Of a stretch of 13,115 bases of DNA, positions 1 through 13,115 are shown one piece after another (the first letter of the stretch is position 1; every line of letters starts with the position of its first letter). The DNA is taken from the UHGV virus genome UHGV-0040766; one strand, 5' to 3'. A program made the translations under genes and the position numbers. The notes beneath the pieces were generated by a model. It did no database searches. It saw only the letters and a program-made list of their open reading frames with translations, and had not been told where the DNA came from. Source of the DNA: a virus.

Positions 1-94
1 GCAGCTCACGGTAACTGATGCCGTATTTGCAGTACCAGCGTACGGCCCACAGAATGATGTCACGCTGAAAATGCCGGCCTTTGAATGGGTTCAT
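1..94 (-). CDS. tnpA: IS6-family transposase (Tnp26-like), N-terminal 31 codons only; remainder lies outside window
   Basis: minus-strand ATG at 92-94; translation MNPFKGRHFQRDIILWAVRWYCKYGISYREL recognised as IS26 transposase N-terminus. Confidence 0.85.
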   Translation of the reverse strand, partial: MNPFKGRHFQRDIILWAVRWYCKYGISYREL

Positions 95-157
95 GTGCAG
101 CTCCATCAGTAAAAGGGGATGATAAGTTTATCACCACCGACTATTTGCAACAGTGCC
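1..157 (-). mobile_element. IS26-like (IS6 family) insertion sequence, terminal 157 bp; element continues beyond window start
   Basis: 14-bp terminal inverted repeat GGCACTGTTGCAAA present as reverse complement at 144-157; subterminal sequence and transposase N-terminus match my recollection of IS26 (one or two mismatches). Confidence 0.85.
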
Positions 158-206
158 CTTTTCTCTCCTGGCCTTCAGCAAGACCCAGCACCAATGAAGT
201 ATTCAT
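158..206 (-). pseudogene. 5' remnant of a small gene truncated by the IS26 end
   Basis: ATG at 204-206 preceded by GGAG; reads MNTSLVLGLAEGQERK and runs directly into the IS26 inverted repeat; upstream region 218-290 is about 85 percent identical to the module upstream of gene 367-696. Confidence 0.45.
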
Positions 207-217
207 CACCACTCCGT

Positions 218-230
218 AAACAAATTGTTT
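218..230. promoter_or_regulatory. palindrome AAACA-AAT-TGTTT, copy 1, candidate operator or 5'UTR element
   Basis: perfect 5+3+5 palindrome 12 bp upstream of the truncated gene start codon. Confidence 0.45.
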
Positions 231-366
231 TCTCAATGGCGTAAATAATACCAGTGTAAAAACGGCTACAAAGCATATTGCTCAGGCACATGAATTATCT
301 AAAGGTGGTTCTTCCCTGCGGCTACAGAGAAGTTAAGCCAGCAGGCGGTGCTGGCTTTGGTTGGGC

Positions 367-696
367 TTACGCGAATAACTCAAGGAATTCCTGCACGTCC
401 CAATGCTGGACAAGGTGAAGATAGAGCTTAGAAATCACGTCATTCTCGCTATCGCATGTGAAGTAGTACTTCTGGCTGCGGTTGTATGTGTCCACACAAA
501 ATTCGCTCATATCCATAAAGTCAGCATCTTCACCCATGTCGCAAATAATCAAAGCAGGAGCATCATCACGAGTCATCAGCTCAAGCACCCAGCGCGAATT
601 GATCAGCGTGGAAGACCAACCTTCTAACTCATAAAACTGGTCAAACTCTTTTTGAGTCATTTTCTTGATTTGGTTGATGTCGATATTTGCAAACAT
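367..696 (-). CDS. hypothetical small acidic protein (109 aa)
   Basis: ORF track 367..762 trimmed to ATG at 694-696 (MFANIDINQIKK...), which has AAGGA 9 nt upstream; earlier track start is TTG/GTG without RBS; no family recognised. Confidence 0.6.
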   Translation of the reverse strand: MFANIDINQIKKMTQKEFDQFYELEGWSSTLINSRWVLELMTRDDAPALIICDMGEDADFMDMSEFCVDTYNRSQKYYFTCDSENDVISKLYLHLVQHWDVQEFLELFA

Positions 697-708
697 AAAG
701 CAATCCTT

Positions 709-721
709 AAACATGTTGTTT
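709..721. promoter_or_regulatory. palindrome AAACA-TGT-TGTTT, copy 2
   Basis: lies 12 bp upstream of ATG of gene 367-696, between a -10-like TATTGT and the RBS. Confidence 0.45.
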
Positions 722-835
722 TCTGAATTTCGTAAACAATACCAGTAAGAAAACGGCCACAAAGTATATCGTTACGGTGCTGCGCTGCCCCGGAGGTTAA
801 TAGCGACAAAAGCCACCGTGCTGGTGGTCTCACTC

Positions 836-1054
836 TTAATCTTCGTCGTCCGGGAACTCGCTGTGTACCGCGTCCACCAGCTCCCGCTTTTCATCTTCAC
901 TAAGCAGGTGCCAGATATCCTTCCCTTTGGGCGATTCCCCTTCTACCGGGACGAACGACCACAACTTGCGGTACAACTCCGGCCCCACTGCATCCAGACA
1001 CTCAGCCAGGGAATCCACACCCCACACCTCAACCGTCACAGGCATCTTAATCAT
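836..1054 (-). CDS. hypothetical small acidic protein (72 aa)
   Basis: ATG at 1052-1054 with GAGGATGAAGAG upstream; ends in acidic tail PDDED; no family recognised. Confidence 0.6.
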   Translation of the reverse strand: MIKMPVTVEVWGVDSLAECLDAVGPELYRKLWSFVPVEGESPKGKDIWHLLSEDEKRELVDAVHSEFPDDED

Positions 1055-1086
1055 CTCTTCATCCTCACTTCGTTTATATAACGTCT

Positions 1087-1099
1087 AAACATGTTGTTT
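1087..1099. promoter_or_regulatory. palindrome AAACA-TGT-TGTTT, copy 3
   Basis: 34 bp upstream of ATG of gene 836-1054; followed by a segment (1100-1135) homologous to 3868-3900. Confidence 0.45.
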
Positions 1100-1436
1100 A
1101 CTTATTGGTGTTATTGTCGCAATAAGACAAAGGCGAAAAAGGATTTTATGTCGTGAAAGCCAGGCTGGGCAGTGAATATCCGGGAACGACACGGGAACCA
1201 GTATTTACGATATTCTGCTCTACGCGCGCCGCAGGGCTGGTGGGCAGAATTTTCTTCTCCCCGAAAACCTACTGAAATCGCTTGAGACCCGAGGATGGTC
1301 TGGCAGAATGGAGTTCAGCAGCTGCACGAGAGGGAACGACACTCCCTCGCGATTTTCAGGCGAGCGAAGAGCAAGGCGCACTCCCGAAGATTTCCCGCAC
1401 TGCTCCCGCAGTCGTCCCTCGCTCTGTACCGGGATG

Positions 1437-1575
1437 TACCCGTTTCCCGACCGGCAGCCAGCCTTTTCCCGGTTCGTATAGCGGGATTCCCACCGTTTCC
1501 CTGAAAAACCTCCAGCCTTTTCCCTGCGGCGACGTTCCCGTTCCTGAAAAGGGACATGGCTTTTCCCTGGATGGC
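1437..1575. repeat. direct repeats built on TTTCCC(G/T)G motifs (about 6 copies, roughly 55-bp super-unit) in a GC-rich non-coding tract
   Basis: CCGTTTCCC and CAGCCTTTTCCC each occur twice, alternating, plus related GTTCCCGTTCC and GGCTTTTCCCTGG; only low-complexity overlapping ORFs. Confidence 0.5.
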
Positions 1576-1764
1576 TCGAAGGCTGACCGAAGGGGTGGAT
1601 AGGGACGTTACGGGGGATGAAAACTATGGCTTGAATTTATACGAAGAAAGTGGCGATACCCCTCCTTCCCTTCCCACTTATACCTCCCACGAATTTTCTC
1701 TCTTATGTGGGCATAAACCTTCTCTCTGATAACGCTCAATACGGCGACTATTCCTGTGGGTGAA

Positions 1765-1885
1765 ATGGGTGGTTTGTTCTTTCTACCGGCATATGTGGTT
1801 TCGTTCTTCTTGAGGTGGTTCTTCTCTGTGTTTTCGTCAGGGTTGTTCTCGTTGTTTTGGTGATTGTTCTTCTCTGTGTATGGAG
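1765..1885 (+). repeat. degenerate tandem repeats of about 19-26 bp (GGTT(T/C)GTTCTTCT-like) at the start of a G+T-rich, A-poor tract (about 1740-2450)
   Basis: five successive units starting near 1768, 1795, 1815, 1840, 1860; a sampled 60-nt stretch (1801-1860) has 2 A residues on the plus strand. Confidence 0.45.
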
Positions 1886-2642
1886 TAATGGCAGGTGGGC
1901 GATTCCTTTCGTTATTGTATTTGAGTTGTTTGTCTTGAGAGCGTGAAAGGCTTTTGTGGTTATTTGTGTATTGAGTAATGGCGTTTCCCCGCGAATGTTC
2001 TGTTTCGTGTCTTTGGGGATTGAGGGAGTCCTTGCGGTAACAGGCTTCGTTAGAGTTTCAGTGGTTCTGGTGTTTATTCGCTGTTTGGGGAATGGCGTGT
2101 AGTGGGTATCGCATGTATGAATGTTTCGAGTTGCCTGTGAAAGTTAGGTTGGTTGTCCGGTAGCCTGGGAAGAAGAGGTGGGTCTTTTCAGTAGCCTGCC
2201 ATAAAGAGGTTGGTTGTTTTTGGGAATGTGGGTAATGGCGTCTCTGGGTTTCCTGTGGGTGTGGTTAGCTTGTTTTCTTGTGTCTGAAAACAACTTGTTT
2301 AGATGTCCAATATAACGCAACGGGAGCGCTTCTGAGCGTGTCTGTTTTTGGGTGGTATCACGAGTCGTTTTTGACGTTTTGGTCGCAGGGAGATGGATTC
2401 TGGTACGCTGGATTTGGGTATAAGAGATGGCGTGCGAAAACATCAACTTTTTAGACCAAATCAGGGGAAAGCGTTGACTTTACGTTGATGTGTTATTTAT
2501 TTGTTTTCTTATGGGTGTAATTGGCTTAAATGCCTTGTCACGCCTGGGATTGAGTGGGGTAGGGTGGTGGGGAAAGTGGCGATCAACGGACTCTTATAGA
2601 AATCCTCAATTTGTGACCGCCAATATCAACGAGCTGCAGCCG

Positions 2643-3212
2643 TTAGTTGTTCAGATAGGCATCCGGAACGCGCACATAAAAGTTTCTTTCGCCGGTCAGT
2701 TCCAGAGTAACGTTTATGTCGTTGCCGTTATCCAGCGTAGCCGTCGCTTTATAGAACTTGTCCGTCACCTTGTCCTGAATTGTCACCTTCATACATTTCG
2801 GCGCTGTGGTTCCGTTATTCTCTTTCAGAATGGTCGTTACGAGAGGACAAGCCGCTTCTTCAAGAGCAACCTCTTCCTGGTGTGGGATACCGATGAAGAT
2901 GTTACCAGCAAGCAACGCGACGATTACGATAAAAGGAAGTCGACTGCCTTTTGTAACGGTGGCACGTTTCCAGAGATAGACCGGAAGGAGAAATACTCCC
3001 CACAGGATGGCCGGTGGTTCATACCCTGCATCAGACAATGCCATTCTGTCAGCCACCAGAAAGCCGAGTCCAGCGACTCCACCTATCACTATTGCATAAT
3101 TCAAATACTCATCTGGCGGTGCTCCAAAGAAGAGAGGCAGTAAAGCTAGAAGCCACGCATAAGCATTATTCAGAGGTTTTGTTTGTTGGTTCTGGGTTTC
3201 CATCACATCCAT
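2643..3212 (-). CDS. hypothetical integral membrane protein (about 4 TM segments plus about 80-aa C-terminal soluble domain)
   Basis: ORF track 2643..3212; four hydrophobic stretches (AWLLALLPLFF, YAIVIGGVAGLGFLVA, AILWGVFLLPVYLW, LPFIVIVALLAGNIFIG); overlapping plus-strand ORF 2490..3143 judged spurious. Confidence 0.65.
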   Translation of the reverse strand: MDVMETQNQQTKPLNNAYAWLLALLPLFFGAPPDEYLNYAIVIGGVAGLGFLVADRMALSDAGYEPPAILWGVFLLPVYLWKRATVTKGSRLPFIVIVALLAGNIFIGIPHQEEVALEEAACPLVTTILKENNGTTAPKCMKVTIQDKVTDKFYKATATLDNGNDINVTLELTGERNFYVRVPDAYLNN

Positions 3213-3288
3213 TCCATCAGATTAAAAAGCGGTACTATGTTACCAATTTTCTTCGCTTATATGACATGATTACTCAACGAGTGGGCGA

Positions 3289-3609
3289 TCACCATTCCCA
3301 TGCAGGTAGCCCATCCACCAGCTCGGCGTCGCAATCGAAGTGAACCACGTCAAAGCCGTCATCCAGTATGGTCTGTATGTTGGAGATCGCCTCTTGGGAA
3401 ATGCCGTACTCACGCAGTTCTTCCTTCCAGTCATTCCCTCGCATTCCAGCACGAACAATCCAGCCGTACTGTGTACCGTGTACCCAATTCAACCCGCGAT
3501 CAGTAAGTGGGTCGAAGCAGGCAATGGGTAGCCGTTCTGAATCCGCTGCCGTTACGTGGGCGGTGCTGATCACCGCCGTCTTATACGATTCGGTGATTTT
3601 CAGCATCAT
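3289..3609 (-). CDS. hypothetical protein (106 aa)
   Basis: ORF track; start overlaps stop of upstream gene by 4 nt (ATGA), suggesting translational coupling. Confidence 0.6.
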   Translation of the reverse strand: MMLKITESYKTAVISTAHVTAADSERLPIACFDPLTDRGLNWVHGTQYGWIVRAGMRGNDWKEELREYGISQEAISNIQTILDDGFDVVHFDCDAELVDGLPAWEW

Positions 3610-3839
3610 GCCTTCTCCTTTGGAAACAGAATGTTGGCCGTGTCAGAAATGACATCCCAATTCACGCCGACGCTGGTGTCATGGCACTCTTTGATTTTTC
3701 GCAAAACCTGAACGCACTGTTCGTCAGTCAGGTCTGGTCGCACTTCACCTACATCTTCCTTGTGCCACATCACCATCAGCAGCGGCTCGTCTTCTGGGTA
3801 GTTCTCCAGCTTTTCGATGATGTCTTTTGCGGTTCCGAA
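3606..3839 (-). CDS. hypothetical small acidic protein (77 aa)
   Basis: ORF track 3606..3860 trimmed to ATG at 3837-3839 (MFGTAKDIIEKL...), which has AAGGAG 5 nt upstream; track start is TTG. Confidence 0.6.
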   Translation of the reverse strand, partial: FGTAKDIIEKLENYPEDEPLLMVMWHKEDVGEVRPDLTDEQCVQVLRKIKECHDTSVGVNWDVISDTANILFPKEKA

Positions 3840-3854
3840 CATGATCAACTCCTT

Positions 3855-3867
3855 AAACAATTTATTT
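3855..3867. promoter_or_regulatory. palindrome AAACA-ATT-TATTT, copy 4 (one mismatch)
   Basis: overlaps the region immediately 5' of the RBS of gene 3606-3839. Confidence 0.4.
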
Positions 3868-3905
3868 TCTTATTTGTGTTATTATCTCAAATAACAAAAG
3901 GTAGA

Positions 3906-3918
3906 AAACAAAATGTTT
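3906..3918. promoter_or_regulatory. palindrome AAACA-AAA-TGTTT, copy 5
   Basis: perfect palindrome between genes 3606-3839 and 3928-4194. Confidence 0.4.
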
Positions 3919-3927
3919 AAGGGATGA

Positions 3928-4194
3928 CTAGGTGAGTTTGAAGTCGTCTATGTCATCAACAAACTCCATATACCTGGCTTCGACACTCGACAATCTGATC
4001 AGATACGCAAGCCCGTAACTTAGTGAAGTGGGTTGCTCCAGCACAAATTCGAACCCATCCTCATGCGTTTTACCAAGCCAGAACCCCCCACCGTATTCTT
4101 TTTCACGTTGGAAGAAAACGAACTGTCCGGGTATTAGGTGCTTGAGTGCTTCGCCCCTATAGACGATCACATATTTAGAATTCTTGCTGCCCAT
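3928..4194 (-). CDS. hypothetical protein (88 aa)
   Basis: ORF track 3928..4251 trimmed to ATG at 4192-4194 (MGSKNSKYVIVYRGE...) with GAGG 8 nt upstream. Confidence 0.5.
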   Translation of the reverse strand: MGSKNSKYVIVYRGEALKHLIPGQFVFFQREKEYGGGFWLGKTHEDGFEFVLEQPTSLSYGLAYLIRLSSVEARYMEFVDDIDDFKLT

Positions 4195-4283
4195 TGCTCG
4201 CCTCGCAATACTGTACATATAAACAGTATTATTTATTACGGTACTGGTCAACTTTACGGGTTAATTGAATAACAAGATGGTGA

Positions 4284-4296
4284 AAACAATTTGTTT
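4284..4296. promoter_or_regulatory. palindrome AAACA-ATT-TGTTT, copy 6, in divergent intergenic region
   Basis: lies between divergently oriented genes 3928-4194 (-) and 4382-4585 (+). Confidence 0.45.
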
Positions 4297-4381
4297 TGGC
4301 ACTTGAGATTTTGCAAATCGCACCTACATGGAAAACGGCAATTTTTGAAACCTGATTTGACCCATGTGAAAGGAGGAAACG

Positions 4382-4585
4382 ATGAAGACCTATGATCGCA
4401 ACCGTAACGCTATCACTACCGGCAGCCGAGTGATGGTGGCAACGAATGGTGCAACGGGAGTCATCAAGGAAATCTGCGGAGAAGGCAAATCAGAAGAACA
4501 ATTACGCCGCTCTGACTGCGTGTCTATCGAAGGTGTGGAAGGTCTATTCTGCCCAATGGATTTGGTTCGCCTGGGGTTCCATTAA
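4382..4585 (+). CDS. hypothetical protein (67 aa)
   Basis: ATG at 4382 with strong RBS GAAAGGAGGAAACG immediately upstream; no family recognised. Confidence 0.65.
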   Translation: MKTYDRNRNAITTGSRVMVATNGATGVIKEICGEGKSEEQLRRSDCVSIEGVEGLFCPMDLVRLGFH

Positions 4586-4599
4586 TTTCACCATCTATA

Positions 4600-4612
4600 A
4601 AACAAATTGTTT
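4600..4612. promoter_or_regulatory. palindrome AAACA-AAT-TGTTT, copy 7, adjacent to terminator hairpin
   Basis: perfect palindrome, here at the 3' ends of two convergent genes; supplies the U-tract for the minus-strand transcript. Confidence 0.4.
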
Positions 4613-4633
4613 AAGGCCACAACTAGTGGCCTT
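4613..4633. terminator. hairpin between convergent genes (stem AAGGCCAC/GTGGCCTT, loop AACTA), likely terminator mainly for the minus-strand gene
   Basis: 8-bp perfect stem; on the minus-strand transcript it is followed by AAACAAUUUGUUUU. Confidence 0.45.
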
Positions 4634-4640
4634 ATCTGGC

Positions 4641-5339
4641 TTACGGAACAGCGGTAATCAGATCGCAAATGCCTGTTTTAGTTAAATCACTATTCAGCTT
4701 CTGAAAATTGGCATTCAGCATTGCGGTATGTATTCGATTCTCAAGTTCAAAGAAGAGACCGATCTTGCCCTCTTTGGCTGCCACCTTCTTCCAAATATTC
4801 ACCTGGTCATCTGCGATACGACTTGCGCAGGTGAACAAGAACGAACTCCCTCTGGGAAGGGATGTCGTGCTGTAGTATTCACCGTCAACTTCAATATACT
4901 TAGCTCGGAATGACTCCAGAGTTAGCTTTTTACCGCTCTCAGCCTGCTTTGTGTCTGCCTTGCTTGTCTTTTCCTGAACTTCAGGCTGTTTCTGCACAGG
5001 CTTTGGTGTCTCATTGACCACCGCAGTGCTGGCCGAACCATCCAAACTCTTGAGGCCATTAATTTGGATTAGATAAGCCAACTCCAGAGCCTTATCACCA
5101 GTGAGTTTTCCACGCATACTTACCCATTGACGCTGAACCGTCTTTAAGGCGTCTGCGTCCCCCGGGTTTGCTTTGAGTGCGTTGGAATAGGTAGAGCTAA
5201 GTTGTTCGTCTAATTTTGACAGGCGTTCGTTATCGCAGATTTTGTGTTCGATTTCTGCCGAAGCCTTTTGGCAGTCAAAGCTGGCTGCAAATACAGCCGG
5301 CGATGCCACCAACAATGATGCCAGTAGGATATTTTTCAT
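4641..5339 (-). CDS. periplasmic DUF1311 / lysozyme-inhibitor LprI-like protein with signal peptide (232 aa)
   Basis: ATG at 5337-5339 with GGAG 6 nt upstream; N-terminal MKNILLASLLVASPAVFA signal peptide; FDCQKASAEIEHKICDNERLSKLDEQLSSTY...QRQW pattern typical of DUF1311. Confidence 0.65.
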   Translation of the reverse strand: MKNILLASLLVASPAVFAASFDCQKASAEIEHKICDNERLSKLDEQLSSTYSNALKANPGDADALKTVQRQWVSMRGKLTGDKALELAYLIQINGLKSLDGSASTAVVNETPKPVQKQPEVQEKTSKADTKQAESGKKLTLESFRAKYIEVDGEYYSTTSLPRGSSFLFTCASRIADDQVNIWKKVAAKEGKIGLFFELENRIHTAMLNANFQKLNSDLTKTGICDLITAVP

Positions 5340-5377
5340 ATTCACTCCATAAATATAAAAGCGCCTGACTATAGCAC

Positions 5378-5593
5378 TTAACCAATTGCTTCTCTCATCT
5401 GATTGTGAAGCTCTTTCAGCCCATCACGTACCGCGTTCATGATACGTTCCAGGGATTGGTATCTGGGGTTTGGCACTGTTGGCCAACCGGCATACCACGG
5501 ATCGTCACCAAACAGACTCAGCAGTTCGTTACCGACACCGAAACAGCAGCAACTTTCTTTTACGTCATCAGCGTTTTCTGCCTCGTCCCACAT
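5378..5593 (-). CDS. hypothetical protein (71 aa)
   Basis: ORF track only; weak RBS; position between two minus-strand genes is compatible with an operon. Confidence 0.35.
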   Translation of the reverse strand: MWDEAENADDVKESCCCFGVGNELLSLFGDDPWYAGWPTVPNPRYQSLERIMNAVRDGLKELHNQMREAIG

Positions 5594-7676: not shown

Positions 7677-7901
7677 TTATTCACTTTATTCACAGGCCCG
7701 ATCCAATATTTAGATCCCCAGAGAGATCCTACAGAAGATCAAAAGAGATCCCCGATCGTCTCCAGCGCTTGCGGTTACTGGCTTGAGAAGGGGTTACTAT
7801 CCACTATAGGGAGCAAAATAACCACTGTAGAGAGCATAATAACCGCTATGAAGAGCAAAACAACCTCTCTGGAGAGTAGTCGGTATCCACTGTAGTGAGT
7901 A
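7677..7901 (+). other. replication origin module 1 (P1 oriR / RepFIB type): two tandem DnaA boxes, six GATC sites, five iterons
   Basis: TTATTCACT at 7677-7685 and TTATTCACA at 7686-7694; GATC at 7700, 7713, 7725, 7737, 7747, 7754; five roughly 21-bp-spaced iterons 7797-7901 (e.g. ATAACCACTGTAGAGAGCA). Confidence 0.7.
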
Positions 7902-8060
7902 GGAGACAATGTTTTAACTGGATAACTCCGAGCCTGTTTTTCTGCGGCAGATGGCTGATATTCTTGGAAATATTGTAAATTTTGCGTTGCGGCGTGTTTA
8001 TTTCGATCACACATTATCCCCAGAAGGGGAGTGATGCCTGATTTTGTAATTATCTGATTT

Positions 8061-8305
8061 TTATACACAGGCCCGATCCAGTAATTCAGATCCCTGTTAG
8101 AACCAAAGAGAACCACAAAGACCCAAAGAGATCCCCGGCCCTTGCAAACCGTTGTGCCACATGGCTTTAGAGGTTATCGATATCCACTATAGTGAGAAGA
8201 ACAACCACTATAGAGAGTAAATCAACCACTATGGAGAGTAGAAAAACCGCTGTAGGCGGTAGGATAACCACTGTGATGGGTGCTACTATCCACTGTAATC
8301 AGTAA
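8061..8305 (+). other. replication origin/control module 2, immediately upstream of repA: one DnaA box, three GATC sites, six iterons
   Basis: TTATACACA at 8061-8069; GATC at 8075, 8089, 8130, with AGAACC/AGACCC variants where module 1 has AGATCC; six iterons 8180-8304. Confidence 0.7.
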
Positions 8306-8342: not shown

Positions 8343-9398
8343 ATGAGCGTAAACGACAATAAAAACATTGCGATAAGCGAAGCATTTTCCGAAACAGACA
8401 AAAAGACCGGCGAAGTTGTTACGTTAGTTCCTAACACCAACAACACAGTTCAGCCTGTTGCTCTGATGCGTCTTGGTCTCTTCGTTCCGACGCTGAAATC
8501 GACATCCAGGGGTAGAAAGGGGCAAATGGTCTCTATGGACGCCTCCGCTGAACTCAAACAGCTGTCTCTGGCCAAAGCCGAAGGGTACGAGGATATAAGG
8601 ATTGCTGGTCTTCGTCTTGATATGGATAACGATTTCAAAACATGGGTGGGCATCATCCACGCGTTCGCCAAGCACAAGGTTGTTGGTGACACCGTCACGT
8701 TGCCGTTCGTCGAGTTCGTCAGACTTTGTGGCATACCAACAGCCAGATCGTCCGCGAAGTTACGTAAGCGCCTGGACAGCTCTCTAAGTCGTATCGCCAC
8801 AAACACCATCTCATTCCGCAGCAAAGGCTCTGAAGAGTATTACGTTACGCACCTTGTGCAGACGGCAAAGTACAGTACCAAGAATGACACGGTCGAACTG
8901 AAGGCCGATCCTAAGATTTTCGAACTTTACCAGTTCGACAAAAAGGTGCTTTTGCAACTTCGGGCCATCAACGAACTCTCCAGAAAGGAATCCGCGCAGG
9001 CGCTCTACACCTTCATTGAAAGTTTGCCACCAGACCCGGCGCCAATCTCATTGGCTCGCTTACGCGCCAGACTTAACTTAACCAGCCGCACCATTACCCA
9101 GAATGCGACAGTCAGGAAGGCGATGGAGCAGCTGCGAGAGATCGGCTATCTCGATTACACTGAAGTGAAACGCGGCAGCTCGGTCTACTTCGTCATCCAC
9201 TATAGACGGCCGAAGTTACGTTCGGCACTGCCGCCATCTATGGCTACGCCTGAAGAGCCAGAAGATATCTTGCCAGGTGATGATCCGGAGGACATTATCG
9301 ATGTTGCCCCTGAAGAAAAAGACGGGGAAATGGTCATGTTGAGCAAGGAAGAACTGGCGATTCTCGAAGAGCTGCGCAAGGCAAAGGCTCGCAAATAG
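8343..9398 (+). CDS. repA: iteron-binding replication initiator, RepFIB / P1 RepA family (351 aa)
   Basis: translation closely matches my recollection of F-plasmid RepFIB initiator (e.g. [69 protein letters not shown]); flanked by iteron arrays. Confidence 0.9.
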
Positions 9399-9400
9399 CC

Positions 9401-10003
9401 CAACCACTGTAGAGAGTAAAAAGGCTCACTATCTACTGTAGTGAGCCTTTTTGTTTATCGGAAATGCAATATCCACTGTAGTGAGTAAAAGAAACCGAAG
9501 AATAACCACTGTAGGCAGTGCGCACAAATCGCGAAGTAAATGTTAGTGGTTGCAAACATAGATAAAACAAGGGCTGAGAGGTTAGCGGTCACTGGGTATC
9601 TCTGTTAAGTCTACTCTCTACAGCGGTTATCGTCGCTCTCCTCATTGTTGACTATCCACTGTGAAGAGCAGAATTGGCTGACTTGACCTCTATCCACTGT
9701 AGTGAGTGGATATCCGTTTAAAACAGCGAAGATTTACTCTCCATAGTGGATATCCGCTGGAGGGGGCATTCCATCACTCTCTATAGTGGTTGTTTGTAGT
9801 CAGTGAACGCCTGTTTACTCACTACAGTGTATAGCGACCCCGATAATCACCAATTTACTCACTACAGTGGATAGTTGATATCGTGGCAGAGGGTTTGCTC
9901 ACTACAGTGGTTGGGGTGCATACCTGAAGGGTGTTCTACTCGCTACAGTGGTTATGAGCCGGATTCACACGCGGTGAGCTGGCTACTCACCGCAGTGGAT
10001 AGT
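9401..10003. repeat. downstream iteron array (incA-like copy-control locus): about 14 iterons, the first five or six forward, the rest inverted
   Basis: forward units at 9401, 9431, 9469, 9502, 9651, 9690; inverted units (TACTC(A/T)CTACAGTGG-like) at 9612, 9736, 9775, 9816, 9856, 9897, 9936, 9984. Confidence 0.8.
9419..9458 (+). terminator. rho-independent-type terminator of repA, built on an iteron-like sequence
   Basis: 10-bp perfect stem AAAGGCTCAC / GTGAGCCTTT (9420-9429, 9441-9450), followed by TTTTGTTT, beginning 21 nt after the repA stop. Confidence 0.55.
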
Positions 10004-11045: not shown

Positions 11046-11225
11046 GTGCTTTCTCCTTGTTGGTAAGTACTTATCTATCTTAATGGGCGCTATAAGGCGC
11101 ACAATCATTGTGTTCAGGCTGGTGGAAAGAACTTCTCCAGCGTGTGGTTGATAGCCTTATCAATGTGCATCAGGTGCCAGACGACCATATCTTTGCTTCC
11201 AATGCCGCGAGTGTAGATGAAGTGG

Positions 11226-11534
<309 letters not shown>

Positions 11535-11539
11535 CTAAG

Positions 11540-11545
11540 AGTCAA
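11540..11545 (-). promoter_or_regulatory. -35 hexamer TTGACT at the right end of the IS110-family element (half of a circle-junction promoter)
   Basis: TTGACT lies 14 nt from the element end; joined to the left end this gives TTGACT, 17-bp spacer, AATAAT. Confidence 0.45.
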
Positions 11546-12618
11546 GCTGTTATCGGGATACTGTTGATCCGCCTGTTTTGATTGCGCAGTAACGTGTAAA
11601 CTTCGCGGGAGATATATCGCTTTAGACAGCGTATCGCTTCCATTTTTGTATGTCCTTCGGCTACACGCCTGGCGACATATTCCTTTGTTTTTGCGTCAGT
11701 TCGTAAGCGTCCGATGGCGATGATGTGAAGTGCACTATTTGCAGCACGATCTCCACCACGATTAAGTCGGTAACGGTTCGTTTTTCCAGAAGAAACGGGG
11801 ACCGGGCTGACACCACACAGTGCCGCAAATCCTGATTCTGATCTTAACCGTTGAGGATTGTCTCCGGCAGTGATCAGCAACTGTGAAGCGCTTTCGTATC
11901 CGATAGCATTACGTTTAATCAGCTCAGGTGCCAACTCGTCGACAATTGCCGCAATCATGACATCCAGATCAGCGATTTCGTCATGTAACTCGAGATAGCG
12001 TCGGGCAAGGGACTTTAATGAAATGCGATAAACGTTGGTTACATTGCGGTATTCACTGGCATCAGGTCTCCAGGAACCCAGGGTCCTGATGAGCTGCATG
12101 CGCGTCATATTTCTGAGCTGTTCACGTAATTCATCCGGGGCAGAGATAATATTTGAATGGATAATCTGGAGAGCGACTCTGCGGGCTGATATTGCTGTTT
12201 TTCGGCAAGTTTTTAATACCCGCAGGGACTCAATCATGCCATCACGCGTTTTGGGAGTAACTGTCCTGATGCCTGAGAATGCTGCATGAGCGGCACATTC
12301 AGCATCAATTGTGTCACTTTTACCCCGTTTGCGTCGCTCCATCCGGTCTGGAGCAGTCACCTCAAGAACCTCTAACCCGGCGTTCTGAAAATAACGAAGC
12401 AAACCGGAACCATAGGTACCTGTGCACTCAACACCAATTCGCTTTAATGTCCCAAACGAGGTCATCCATGCCAGCATCTGCCGGTAACCTTGTCGTGTTG
12501 TGGAGAAATACTGAGTCCCAAGGACTTTATTGTTCTGATCTACGACAGCGGCAACGTGCAAATCTTTATGTGTATCCACGCCACCCACAACGGCAGCTTT
12601 GGTAACTTTATCAACCAT
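11542..12618 (-). CDS. IS110-family DEDD transposase / recombinase (358 aa)
   Basis: N-terminal VGGVDTHKDLHV, ECTGTYGSG and TDTIDAECAAHAA motifs (DEDD/RuvC-like) plus C-terminal FAALCGVSPVPVSSGK segment; AGGAG 8 nt upstream of ATG at 12616-12618. Confidence 0.9.
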   Translation of the reverse strand: MVDKVTKAAVVGGVDTHKDLHVAAVVDQNNKVLGTQYFSTTRQGYRQMLAWMTSFGTLKRIGVECTGTYGSGLLRYFQNAGLEVLEVTAPDRMERRKRGKSDTIDAECAAHAAFSGIRTVTPKTRDGMIESLRVLKTCRKTAISARRVALQIIHSNIISAPDELREQLRNMTRMQLIRTLGSWRPDASEYRNVTNVYRISLKSLARRYLELHDEIADLDVMIAAIVDELAPELIKRNAIGYESASQLLITAGDNPQRLRSESGFAALCGVSPVPVSSGKTNRYRLNRGGDRAANSALHIIAIGRLRTDAKTKEYVARRVAEGHTKMEAIRCLKRYISREVYTLLRNQNRRINSIPITA

Positions 12619-12890
12619 GACAGAGCTCCTGTGAGGAAACAGAGTTGAATCTCCAGACAGATAACCCGGACAGGACAGTAACGAGACAAGCCGTCAGGCC
12701 CTTCTTGAGTCACGCGCATCGGTGAGGAGATGCCTCGCATGAAGGCGCTTCCGGCAACCGACGGGTCCAGGGCAGGACACAAAAGGTCGATCGCTGTGTG
12801 AGTCAGGATGCGGGAAGGTCTTCACTGCATCAGTAATCACACCAATCTGGTTAAACGGCAAACTAAGTGGTGGTAAAGACTGACATCGGC
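12619..12890 (-). ncRNA. candidate bridge RNA (guide ncRNA) encoded in the 5' non-coding arm of the IS110-family element; exact ends unknown
   Basis: arm contains CACAGCGATC (identical to reconstructed target across the crossover) and CTGCCCTG (reverse complement of right target flank) 13 nt apart; also AGAAGGGC matching the element's right end; no plausible ORF. Confidence 0.5.
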
Positions 12891-12896
12891 ATTATT
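12891..12896 (-). promoter_or_regulatory. -10 hexamer AATAAT at the left end of the IS110-family element (other half of the circle-junction promoter)
   Basis: element begins AGTAATAATGCC on the minus strand; in the integrated state no good -35 lies upstream. Confidence 0.45.
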
Positions 12897-12899
12897 ACT

Positions 12900-13097
12900 A
12901 TCGCTGTGGAACATCACCCCGCCGGGCTTACCACGGGTTTCCCATGCCATTTCCAGCGATTTCATGGTGAGCCTGCTGTCCGGCGAGAACGACATGGCCC
13001 AGCCCACTGGTTTTCTTGCGAACAGGTCGAGAACAACGGCGAGGTACGCCCAGCGCTTACCCGTCCAGAGTAGAGTAAGAGGCAGGGCGTAGTCGGA
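12900..13097 (-). pseudogene. IS3-family orfB, internal fragment proximal to the nested insertion, with an in-frame stop upstream
   Basis: minus-strand SDYALPLTLLWTGKRWAYLAVVLDLFARKPVGWAMSFSPDSRLTMKSLEMAWETRGKPGGVMFHSD; in-frame TAG at 13098-13100. Confidence 0.7.
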
Positions 13098-13115
13098 CTA
13101 TTTCCCTGCCTCTCC

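Follow-up and report, generated by a model that had tools for sequence, protein, structure and literature searches.

A conserved 13-bp palindrome in predicted promoter cassettes of SSU5/pHCM2-like phage-plasmids, a candidate operator

The 13,115-nt stretch of virus genome UHGV-0040766 analysed here (the window) contains repeated copies of the 13-bp palindrome AAACA-N3-TGTTT. A preliminary description of this DNA proposed that the palindrome is a common operator for a repressor, a conserved RNA hairpin in 5' untranslated regions, or a boundary sequence enabling the modular exchange of gene cassettes. Which of these is it? Window positions 157–5400 are the small-gene accessory region (small minus-strand genes) of a degraded SSU5/pHCM2-like phage-plasmid, cut by IS26. 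Positions 150–5400 are 100% identical to the E. coli plasmid pXJW9B263-1 and 86–99% identical to many non-mobilizable IncFIB plasmids of approximately 105–115 kb and to phage-plasmids, among them Salmonella phage SSU5, Escherichia phage Cyrano and Klebsiella phage-plasmids. The explanation we prefer, which we hold to be evenly poised between right and wrong, is that the palindrome is a DNA operator for a putative repressor, located in promoter cassettes that double as recombination joints.

The palindrome and its cassette

A pattern search of the window yielded seven exact copies of AAACA-N3-TGTTT (at positions 218, 709, 1087, 2288, 3906, 4284 and 4600) and two copies with one mismatch (3855 and 3624). 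These 9 matches at ≤1 mismatch compare with 0.73 expected from 200 dinucleotide-preserving shuffles, none of which reached 9 (maximum 4). The copy at 3624 lies inside the coding sequence 3606–3842 and is probably due to chance. The eight good copies (the seven exact ones and 3855) are all intergenic, judged by the annotation of the identical plasmid NZ_CP067400.1. Seven copies had been listed in the preliminary description; the motif is real and all the listed sites were found, but the exact copy at 2288 had been overlooked. No exact or one-mismatch copy was present beyond 4612, in agreement with the earlier statement that the remaining 8.5 kb lacks the motif.

A motif search in related plasmids, which had been suggested as a check, showed that the palindrome belongs to the whole family. 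In genomes of approximately 100–110 kb each, there were 15 exact copies in pLAO18 (E. coli), 14 in SSU5 (Salmonella) and 14 in pJN2-26 (Klebsiella), where a first-order Markov model predicts 0.2–0.27, as well as 11 in the first 100 kb of Cyrano and 17 in NZ_CP055187, a Klebsiella element with a helicase only 71–72% identical. Allowing one mismatch to the 6-1-6 consensus described below gave 17–20 copies per genome. Twenty-one IMG/VR loci around the DUF1380 gene contained 2–12 copies each, and 80 further loci around the helicase gene contained 400 copies in 1.52 Mb; 78 of these 80 had at least one copy, and the only two without were both short contigs. None of the clades among these 80 loci uses a different palindrome, and the sequence is invariant across approximately 100 related elements. 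Orthologous sites precede terS, parA, a cobT-like gene, dnaB, ant/rha, a DUF4942 methylase gene, DUF1380, ydfZ and others across genera. In SSU5, all 14 copies are located between annotated genes, as compared by hand.

The oriented 20-mer AGAAAACAANTTGTTTAAGG was present in 77 IMG/VR stretches, of which approximately 50 align substantially with SSU5-type genomes and 3 are lone matches. About 22 others share with SSU5-type genomes one single-copy 65-bp module, consisting of a GC hairpin plus palindrome and homologous to SSU5 85579–85642, and a humD-like segment, but little else. Judged by their size and this humD-like segment, these contigs are apparently P1-like, which suggests that the hairpin-plus-palindrome module moves between phage-plasmid families. 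In a set with one genome per bacterial species the 20-mer was found in only 8 stretches. One is a 108.7-kb Kluyvera contig, probably an SSU5-like plasmid, another is a Buttiauxella contig that holds it twice, and the remaining 6 have a single copy each, against approximately 4 estimated by chance. These singletons are near chance level; the 13-mer core was not scanned in host chromosomes.

Palindromes also occur in pairs 25 bp apart, start to start, at 56/81 in SSU5, 57/82 in Cyrano, 75127/75152 in pLAO18 and 77340/77365 in NZ_CP055187. The pair preceding terS is followed by a GC hairpin and, approximately 6 nt further, a T-run, together a possible leader terminator. The distant Klebsiella plasmid has such a pair between the halves of a split dnaE.

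For an information profile, 42 sites were oriented by their flanks. In gene direction the consensus reads ...TGnGATAAT-aAcACCAAcaAGA-AAACAAnTTGTTT-AAGG...ATG. The core is a 6-1-6 palindrome (AAACAA-N-TTGTTT) with 2.0 bits at 10 of its 12 fixed positions and 1.8 and 1.2 bits at the two innermost. The -10 hexamer, often accompanied by the TG of an extended -10, ends in a near-invariant T (1.8 bits) 14 nt upstream of the palindrome; outside the palindrome and this T the cassette is far less conserved. The distance from -10 to palindrome is fixed at 12–14 nt, and that from palindrome to start codon runs from approximately 10 to 85 nt, tabulated values of 4–6 nt referring to upstream GTG, TTG or ATG codons and not to starts preceded by a Shine-Dalgarno sequence (SD). 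Given a predicted transcription start about 7 nt after the hexamer, the palindrome would cover roughly +8 to +20. The earlier placement of the palindrome between a -10-like hexamer and the ribosome-binding site is right for the minus-strand units of the window. Five copies had been placed 12–35 bp before start codons; in fact there are four, at 11–35 nt and all on the minus strand (218, 709, 1087 and 3855).

A second copy can overlie the -35 region, 19 nt before the -10, with its predicted centre at about -38, the downstream copy being centred at about +14. In 6 genomes a scan anchored on the -10 skeleton placed the upstream copy at a distance of exactly 51 bp (offset 0) from the downstream one. 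A promoter can have the upstream copy only, the downstream copy only or both, and beside an upstream copy the downstream one is intact, absent or reduced to the half-site AGAAAACAA. Units of NZ_CP055187 mostly have only the upstream copy, approximately 64 nt from the ATG. Each palindrome is flanked by AGA on the promoter-proximal side and AAGG on the distal side, so that a double cassette as a whole is an extensive, imperfect inverted repeat, with a -10 that is GATAAT in one reading direction and TATTAT in the opposite one. In the window, a 33-nt inverted repeat joins 3851–3883 with 3890–3922 (82% complementary).

At -0.7 kcal/mol (z = -0.35), the RNA fold of the palindrome is matched by 51 of 200 shuffled sequences. 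In a set of 164 oriented, non-identical sites drawn from 25 elements, G10>A occurred 14 times and C4>T 6 times, never together, and no compensatory substitution was seen at the single G-C pair; the test yields little information because the arms are otherwise invariant. An Rfam scan of the window gave nothing above noise, and a terminator scan called none of its palindromes. The unstable hairpin, the lack of a double change and the upstream-only copies, which are predicted to be untranscribed from the adjoining promoter, speak against an RNA hairpin that stands on its own; they favour a site recognised as double-stranded DNA. The suggestion of a conserved hairpin in 5' untranslated regions thus finds no support as far as a free-standing structure is concerned, many copies lying upstream of the predicted start.

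Breakpoints between relatives were derived from a blastn comparison of window positions 150–5400 with 25 of them. Alignment ends cluster at 694–728 (palindrome 709; peaks at 702 and 726), 1075–1086 (palindrome 1087; peak at 1078), 3921–3926 (palindrome 3906; peak at 3925), 4296 (palindrome 4284) and 4633–4635 (palindrome 4600 plus hairpin; peak at 4634). Of 28 endpoint clusters, six were no more than 25 bp from a palindrome, a zone that takes up 9.4% of positions (P ~0.04); three of the five clusters seen most often, and four of the first seven, belong to these six. With intergenic positions only, the excess is weak (6 of 22 clusters, 19% expected), and the recurrent breakpoints 2634 and 3289 are ordinary gene boundaries without a palindrome. 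A minus-strand gene unit at 722–1086, consisting of the promoter of the second cassette and gene 836–1051, has palindromes 709 and 1087 as its ends and is present or absent among relatives; it is missing in Cyrano and three others (L031, L033 and L036). The deletion junction there consists of the left flank of 709, one palindrome and the right flank of 1087. Because a cassette of 35–85 bp recurs between small genes, the cassettes offer short homology for the insertion, deletion and swapping of gene units. Breakpoints on palindromes and a unit bounded by two of them bear out the proposed boundaries for modular exchange, as a consequence of the cassettes.

Candidate functions of the palindrome

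Of the three proposed functions a common operator for a repressor is best supported, by the invariance of the palindrome and its fixed positions at the predicted promoter core. From this arrangement we infer promoter activity, a start site, repression and the existence of a binder. The cassette would be a sigma-70-type promoter with an extended -10, specific to SSU5/pHCM2-like phage-plasmids, and would be built in the order optional GC hairpin, optional upstream palindrome (about -38), 19 nt, TGnGATAAT, 12–14 nt, AGA, AAACAAnTTGTTT (about +14), AAGG as SD, and ATG. A dimeric DNA-binding protein, encoded by the phage or the host, may bind the 6-1-6 dyad at about -38, about +14 or both, and binding would occlude RNA polymerase or block promoter escape. 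Operator placement at either or both positions fits occlusion rather than activation. Approximately 15–20 transcription units per genome, comprising replication, partition, packaging and small accessory genes, would then be under one control and shut until a signal arrives. Recombination at the cassettes would be a by-product that shapes the small-gene region.

Several points weigh against an operator. A simple -35/-10 scan of the window flags none of the cassettes, so that they are predicted to be promoters from the extended -10 and from conservation, and a canonical hexamer in exact register is present at only about one third of the sites. Some copies have no recognisable -10 and are located just upstream of an SD inside operons. 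Such promoter-less copies include two, 25 bp apart, at the junction of the split dnaE, and, in Klebsiella lineages, one where the DHFR gene ends. The latter lies inside the last codons, where AAACAAATTGTTTAC encodes KQIVY (NZ_CP055187 101669 and pJN2-26 11788), 13 nt before the next start codon; SSU5 and the E. coli elements have TTGCAGATCGTATAC at this place, with six differences from the Klebsiella version. A role at the RNA level or as a roadblock explains the promoter-less copies no less well than promoter occlusion does, or even better. Common descent of the cassettes, rather than function, could lie behind the fixed 51-bp spacing. In raw counts, which include orthologous copies and so do not represent independent events, conservation is higher in the left arm than in the right, unlike the prediction for a pure dyad operator. 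In the LF82 lysogen, parA, which has a perfect downstream copy, is expressed at 50, 5 times background. Finally, none of the candidates examined (cI-like, FljA-like, SSU5_130 and ParB-like proteins) was confirmed as the binder.

Among these candidates, the cI-like gene adjoins the integrase (CYRAN_45 type) and is expressed in the LF82 lysogen. Its switch region has a different conserved palindrome, GGTAAG-N2-CTTACC (pLAO18 25970–26227, Cyrano 42574–42826), which is probably the operator of the immunity repressor. A near copy of it, GTAAGTGCTTAT, is present where the helicase operon and the ParB-like cluster diverge (SSU5 ~99790–99815). The cI-like immunity repressor was rejected as binder, since it has this palindrome of its own and SSU5 lacks the gene yet carries 14 copies of the 13-mer. 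The 'repressor-like' protein SSU5_116 was rejected as well, being conserved in neither pLAO18 nor pJN2-26. A proteome comparison brought out conserved small proteins, i.e. SSU5_130 (75–82% identical) and two ParB-like proteins (65–69%), for which neither Pfam nor PHROG gave an informative annotation; they are silent in the LF82 lysogen (5–9 against a background of 9.8). The palindrome-headed Cyrano genes are likewise at background there (5–13, median 9.8), a point in favour of the operator. Co-variation between motif and regulator is uninformative because no clade found differs in the motif, not even those in which helicase identity is 83% or 71%. A host protein as binder would explain this invariance across genera; we know of no enterobacterial regulator with this site.

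A different kind of binder would act on RNA. An FljA-type protein could bind AAGAAAACAAnUUGUUUAAGG in the leader next to the SD and repress translation of, or destabilise, approximately 15–20 mRNAs, which we consider rather unlikely. All five complete relatives, and 831 plasmid records, have a PF03614 (Flag1_repress) protein (E 1e-81 to 1e-95), whose gene adjoins the palindrome-rich region and is expressed in the LF82 lysogen at 18, and up to 2^7–2^8 in other conditions. FljA was reportedly found to bind the fliC mRNA leader (Yamamoto and Kutsukake, in 2006). An A-rich followed by a U-rich tract is typical of Sm-protein ligands, and the conserved FljA-type protein has a predicted tandem Sm/Hfq-like fold without a helix-turn-helix. 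Moreover, most copies in SSU5-type genomes abut the SD, and copies stand directly before SDs at sites without a recognisable promoter. FljA acts post-transcriptionally (PMC2652032). Against this, the FljA-like protein of NZ_CP055187 is only 34% identical to the SSU5 type (true FljA 35–38%), whereas the palindrome there is unchanged and in most cases precedes the predicted start. Neither AAACA-N3-TGTTT nor anything similar occurs in the E. coli fliC leader. Recognition of a single strand would give no obvious reason for exact dyad symmetry, and the hairpin lacks stability as well as covariation. The plasmid of the window has lost the FljA-like gene yet its palindromes are intact, although the loss may be recent. 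The fuller version, in which such a tandem Sm/Hfq-like protein binds AAGAAAACAAnUUGUUUAAGG in leaders and intercistronic regions and shuts off approximately 20 early, replication and packaging genes post-transcriptionally, seems to us doubtful to the same degree.

Slightly less likely still, no dedicated trans-acting factor is needed. The conserved block would be intrinsic to a promoter and leader module (start region, A/U-rich translational enhancer and SD) that was spread by duplication and recombination, the palindrome arising from back-to-back divergent copies. The cassettes are clearly paralogous over 35–85 bp, and with GATAAT and TATTAT on opposite strands a back-to-back pair is plausible as a bidirectional promoter. 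The left half AGAAAACAA stays by the start site even where the right half has decayed, and the AAGG flank doubles as SD. However, conservation is far stronger in the 13-mer than elsewhere in the cassette, the -10 included, a pattern that homogenisation would not produce. Upstream-only copies have both arms perfect at a place with neither leader nor SD; in Klebsiella lineages a copy was built inside an open reading frame (ORF) by six substitutions relative to SSU5; and isolated copies stand beside hairpins without a promoter (4600).

That the palindromes are primarily recombination sites, as boundaries or as targets of a recombinase or endonuclease that mobilise gene cassettes, with regulation incidental, we regard as improbable. 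It would account for the breakpoint excess, the Cyrano junction exactly at a palindrome and the arrival of the 65-bp module in the apparently P1-like contigs, and the phages carry T4-like recombination genes. However, orthologous copies precede the non-variable core genes terS, parA, dnaB and cobT, the breakpoints 2634 and 3289 recur without a palindrome, the intergenic enrichment is weak, the sites are associated with no dedicated recombinase, and the constant spacing to the -10 speaks for a function in transcription. It is very improbable that the palindromes terminate transcription or, as hairpins, stabilise RNA at small-gene ends: copies do occur directly after stop codons or GC hairpins and are followed by the T-rich TTGTTTTCT (window 4600 and 3906; pJN2-26 21773, 24759 and 28539), but the stem of 5–6 A-T pairs and one G-C pair is no more stable than that of shuffled sequences, the terminator scan does not call it, and most copies lie between the -10 and the SD, where termination would silence the gene.

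Features of the window and its plasmid

Window positions 1–156 are the end of an IS26, for which the 100%-identical plasmid NZ_CP067400.1 has an annotation adjoining this position. The IS26, with an inverted repeat that ends at approximately 156 (GGCACTGTTGCAAA is read at 143–156), cuts the gene headed by palindrome 218. The predicted promoter cassette of this gene (218–253, minus strand) consists of the palindrome at 218–230 (AAACAATTTGTTT on the minus strand), a 14-nt spacer, the -10 TATTAT at 245–250 and TG at 252–253; the truncated gene, also on the minus strand, has the SD GGAG and an ATG at approximately 206. The second cassette (709–744, minus strand) has the palindrome at 709–721, a 14-nt spacer, the -10 TATTGT at 736–741 and TG at 743–744, and heads gene 367–696 (minus strand, 109 amino acids, phrog_7645, ATG at 696), with the SD AAGGA directly after the palindrome. 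In the third (1087–1121, minus strand), the palindrome at 1087–1099 is separated by 13 nt from the -10 GACAAT (1113–1118) and TGC (1119–1121); its gene, 836–1051 (minus strand), encodes 71 amino acids from an ATG at 1051. Two pairs of longer homologous modules that had been pointed out are indeed present: 210–278 and 701–769 are 81% identical over 69 nt, and 1086–1140 and 3854–3908 are 73% identical over 55 nt.

The double-operator cassette is on the minus strand. Its downstream part (3855–3889) comprises the palindrome 3855–3867 (one mismatch, AAATAAATTGTTT on the minus strand), a 13-nt spacer, the -10 GATAAT at 3881–3886 and TGA at 3887–3889, and its upstream part is the palindrome 3906–3918, 19 nt beyond the -10, with 51 bp between the two centres. 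It heads genes 3606–3842 (DUF1380, ATG at 3842) and 3289–3606, both on the minus strand. Copy 3906 itself faces only a 3-codon mini-ORF and no real gene. The 51-bp pair recurs in SSU5 (88319/88370) and pLAO18 (89319/89370).

Two exact copies on the plus strand flank ydfZ (4382–4585, plus strand). That at 4284–4296 is the copy correctly described as lying in a divergent intergenic region, 85 nt upstream of ydfZ and approximately 90 nt upstream of gene 3928–4194 (minus strand), and its flanks orient it towards ydfZ. The module at 4600–4633, between the convergent ydfZ and LprI-like gene 4641–5339, consists of the palindrome 4600–4612 and a GC hairpin, AAGGCCAC-N5-GTGGCCTT (4613–4633). This copy had been read as the U-tract side of a terminator hairpin; it adjoins the GC hairpin but is not a canonical U-tract. 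Hairpin-plus-palindrome modules of this type recur in relatives, and it is this type that the apparently P1-like contigs hold in single copy.

Upstream, positions ~1150–2640 form a stretch of approximately 1.45 kb without convincing genes; alignments with close and mid-distance relatives show 71–85% conservation. At the corresponding place the distant Klebsiella plasmid also has a non-coding gap, which is similar by length. The plus strand is GT-rich, with GTAATGGCG-like repeats at approximately 1886, 1973, 2090 and 2231; there are also a 24-bp tandem repeat at 1817–1879 and GGGAAA(A/C)GG repeats on the minus strand at 1440–1570. The stretch has no Rfam match; a lytic origin and a non-coding RNA are possibilities. 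It contains the exact palindrome 2288–2300 (plus strand), without a -10 at the usual distance, followed by a 10-codon mini-ORF (2303–2335) and a terminator-like hairpin (2326–2339, with a T-run to 2352). The site is kept in SSU5 (90740), pLAO18 (87755) and pJN2-26 (25869), together with the mini-ORF and hairpin, and the arrangement 2288–2352 could be a short transcript or an attenuator-like leader. A decayed cassette copy at 2494–2545 (minus strand, AATTACACCCATAAG-AAAACAAATAAATA) has lost its right arm and points into the non-coding stretch.

The genes of the window are small and each matches a PHROG family of unknown function; three also have a Pfam match (DUF5983, YdfZ and LprI). Gene content of the small-gene region varies among relatives. 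The 88-amino-acid gene 3928–4194 (minus strand; phrog_2100, no Pfam match) has an exact LexA-box-like sequence, TACTGTACATATAAACAGTA, at 4209–4228, between a TTGACC -35-like hexamer and its start, and this sequence is kept in SSU5 and pLAO18. The related phage Cyrano is inducible by ciprofloxacin (PMC9928086). The gene could encode an SOS-controlled antirepressor.

Downstream of the small-gene region there are a phosphoesterase gene, a RepA gene with iterons and insertion sequence (IS) elements. Iteron-like repeat arrays (..CCACTATAG/CCACTGTAG..) at 7780–8300 and 9400–10000 lie on both sides of RepA (8343–9398), as expected for an IncFIB(pHCM2)-type replicon. Positions 11100–13115 are nested IS remnants, including a 358-amino-acid ORF at 11542–12618 (minus strand). 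The ORF is a putative transposase; the matching plasmid annotates an IS3-family transposase there, with further fragments on both sides. The source plasmid NZ_CP067400.1 keeps repA, the cI-like gene, an integrase, parA, dnaB and terS/terL, but none of the genes from portal to tail. The segment with the FljA-like regulator has given way to IS26-bounded foreign DNA (dha operon, resistance genes and a MOBP fragment), and the plasmid carries blaTEM-1, sul2 and dfrA14.

Comparable systems and significance

The KorB/KorA regulon of the IncP plasmid RK2 has a 13-bp OB, TTTAGC(G/C)GCTAAA, at 12 sites, and a 12-bp OA. As with OB, a perfect 6-1-6 palindrome of 13 bp is present here at a dozen or more predicted promoters, including those of partition and replication genes. 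One class of KorB sites is centred about 39–40 bp upstream of the start, compared with the predicted -38 here, and the KorB regulon is co-ordinately repressed as a single unit, a single control also being proposed here. However, inspection shows no sequence similarity to the consensus of OB, of OA or of the C1 operator of phage P1, the ParB-like proteins here are silent in the lysogen, and the second operator position at about +14 and the paralogous promoter cassette are not features of KorB.

In the IncN plasmid pKM101 and the IncW plasmid R388, conserved upstream (CUP) repeats are promoter modules before small leading-region genes, which contain the operator for one repressor (ArdK/KorA-type) and are recombination hot spots. 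The likeness to the IncN repeats that had been drawn is fair as a functional analogy, the element here being a phage-plasmid and not IncN or IncW. CUP belongs to the leading region of conjugative plasmids and has a known repressor, and it is not known to be related in sequence. Phage P1 C1 has 17 or more dispersed operators, and cluster A mycobacteriophages have 'stoperators'. These resemble the present sites in that many copies of a short operator serve many separate transcription units over the genome; they are asymmetric and bound by the immunity repressor, whereas here the site is a dyad and the cI-like repressor has GGTAAG-N2-CTTACC. T4 RegA acts on early mRNAs and Salmonella FljA on fliC mRNA. 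The targets of RegA and FljA are comparable as short A/U-rich elements by the SD or start codon, and an FljA-family protein is encoded here, but many copies of the palindrome lie outside any gene leader and the E. coli fliC leader lacks it.

The PeSLs of T4-type phages are cassettes of a sigma-70-like promoter and a stem-loop, located between small ORFs in plastic regions, and recombination between them gives the insertions, deletions and replacements that distinguish relatives (PMC2839356, PMC4122927). The cassettes here are likewise located between small ORFs of unknown function and contain the junctions of indels and replacements, and in most of them there is a promoter-like extended -10. 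Unlike PeSLs, they are hosted by a temperate siphovirus phage-plasmid, and their most conserved element is an A/T-rich 13-bp dyad over the predicted promoter and not a terminator stem-loop; the GC hairpins, as counterpart of the PeSL stem-loop, accompany only some copies (window 4613–4633, pJN2-26 21773 and 24759, and the apparently P1-like module). The present arrangement stands apart from all these systems in that a phage-plasmid joins a paralogous, partly bidirectional promoter cassette to a perfect dyad that occupies two fixed positions. Dispersed operators and mobile promoter cassettes are known principles, of which this is a new example unless the palindrome acts at the RNA level. In the searchable literature, which is incomplete so that a prior description is possible, we found neither the four exact 13-mers nor any description of the palindrome in SSU5/pHCM2 papers.

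Phage-plasmids of the SSU5/pHCM2 type are common in Escherichia, Klebsiella, Salmonella, Enterobacter and Yersinia and can carry resistance genes (PMC9600943); the searchable literature holds little on their gene regulation. The invariant site before terS, parA, dnaB, cobT, ant and a series of small accessory genes provides an experimental handle, and the 21-mer CCTTAAACAAGTTGTTTTCTG used as DNA or RNA bait should identify the regulator. The site list defines the regulon in every member of the family. If an RNA-binding protein turned out to be responsible, a temperate phage-plasmid would possess a global translational repressor of the RegA kind, and the flagellar FljA would be a domesticated copy of a phage regulator. 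The cassettes also explain the gain and loss of small-gene units, which matters for tracing anti-defence or fitness genes located there.

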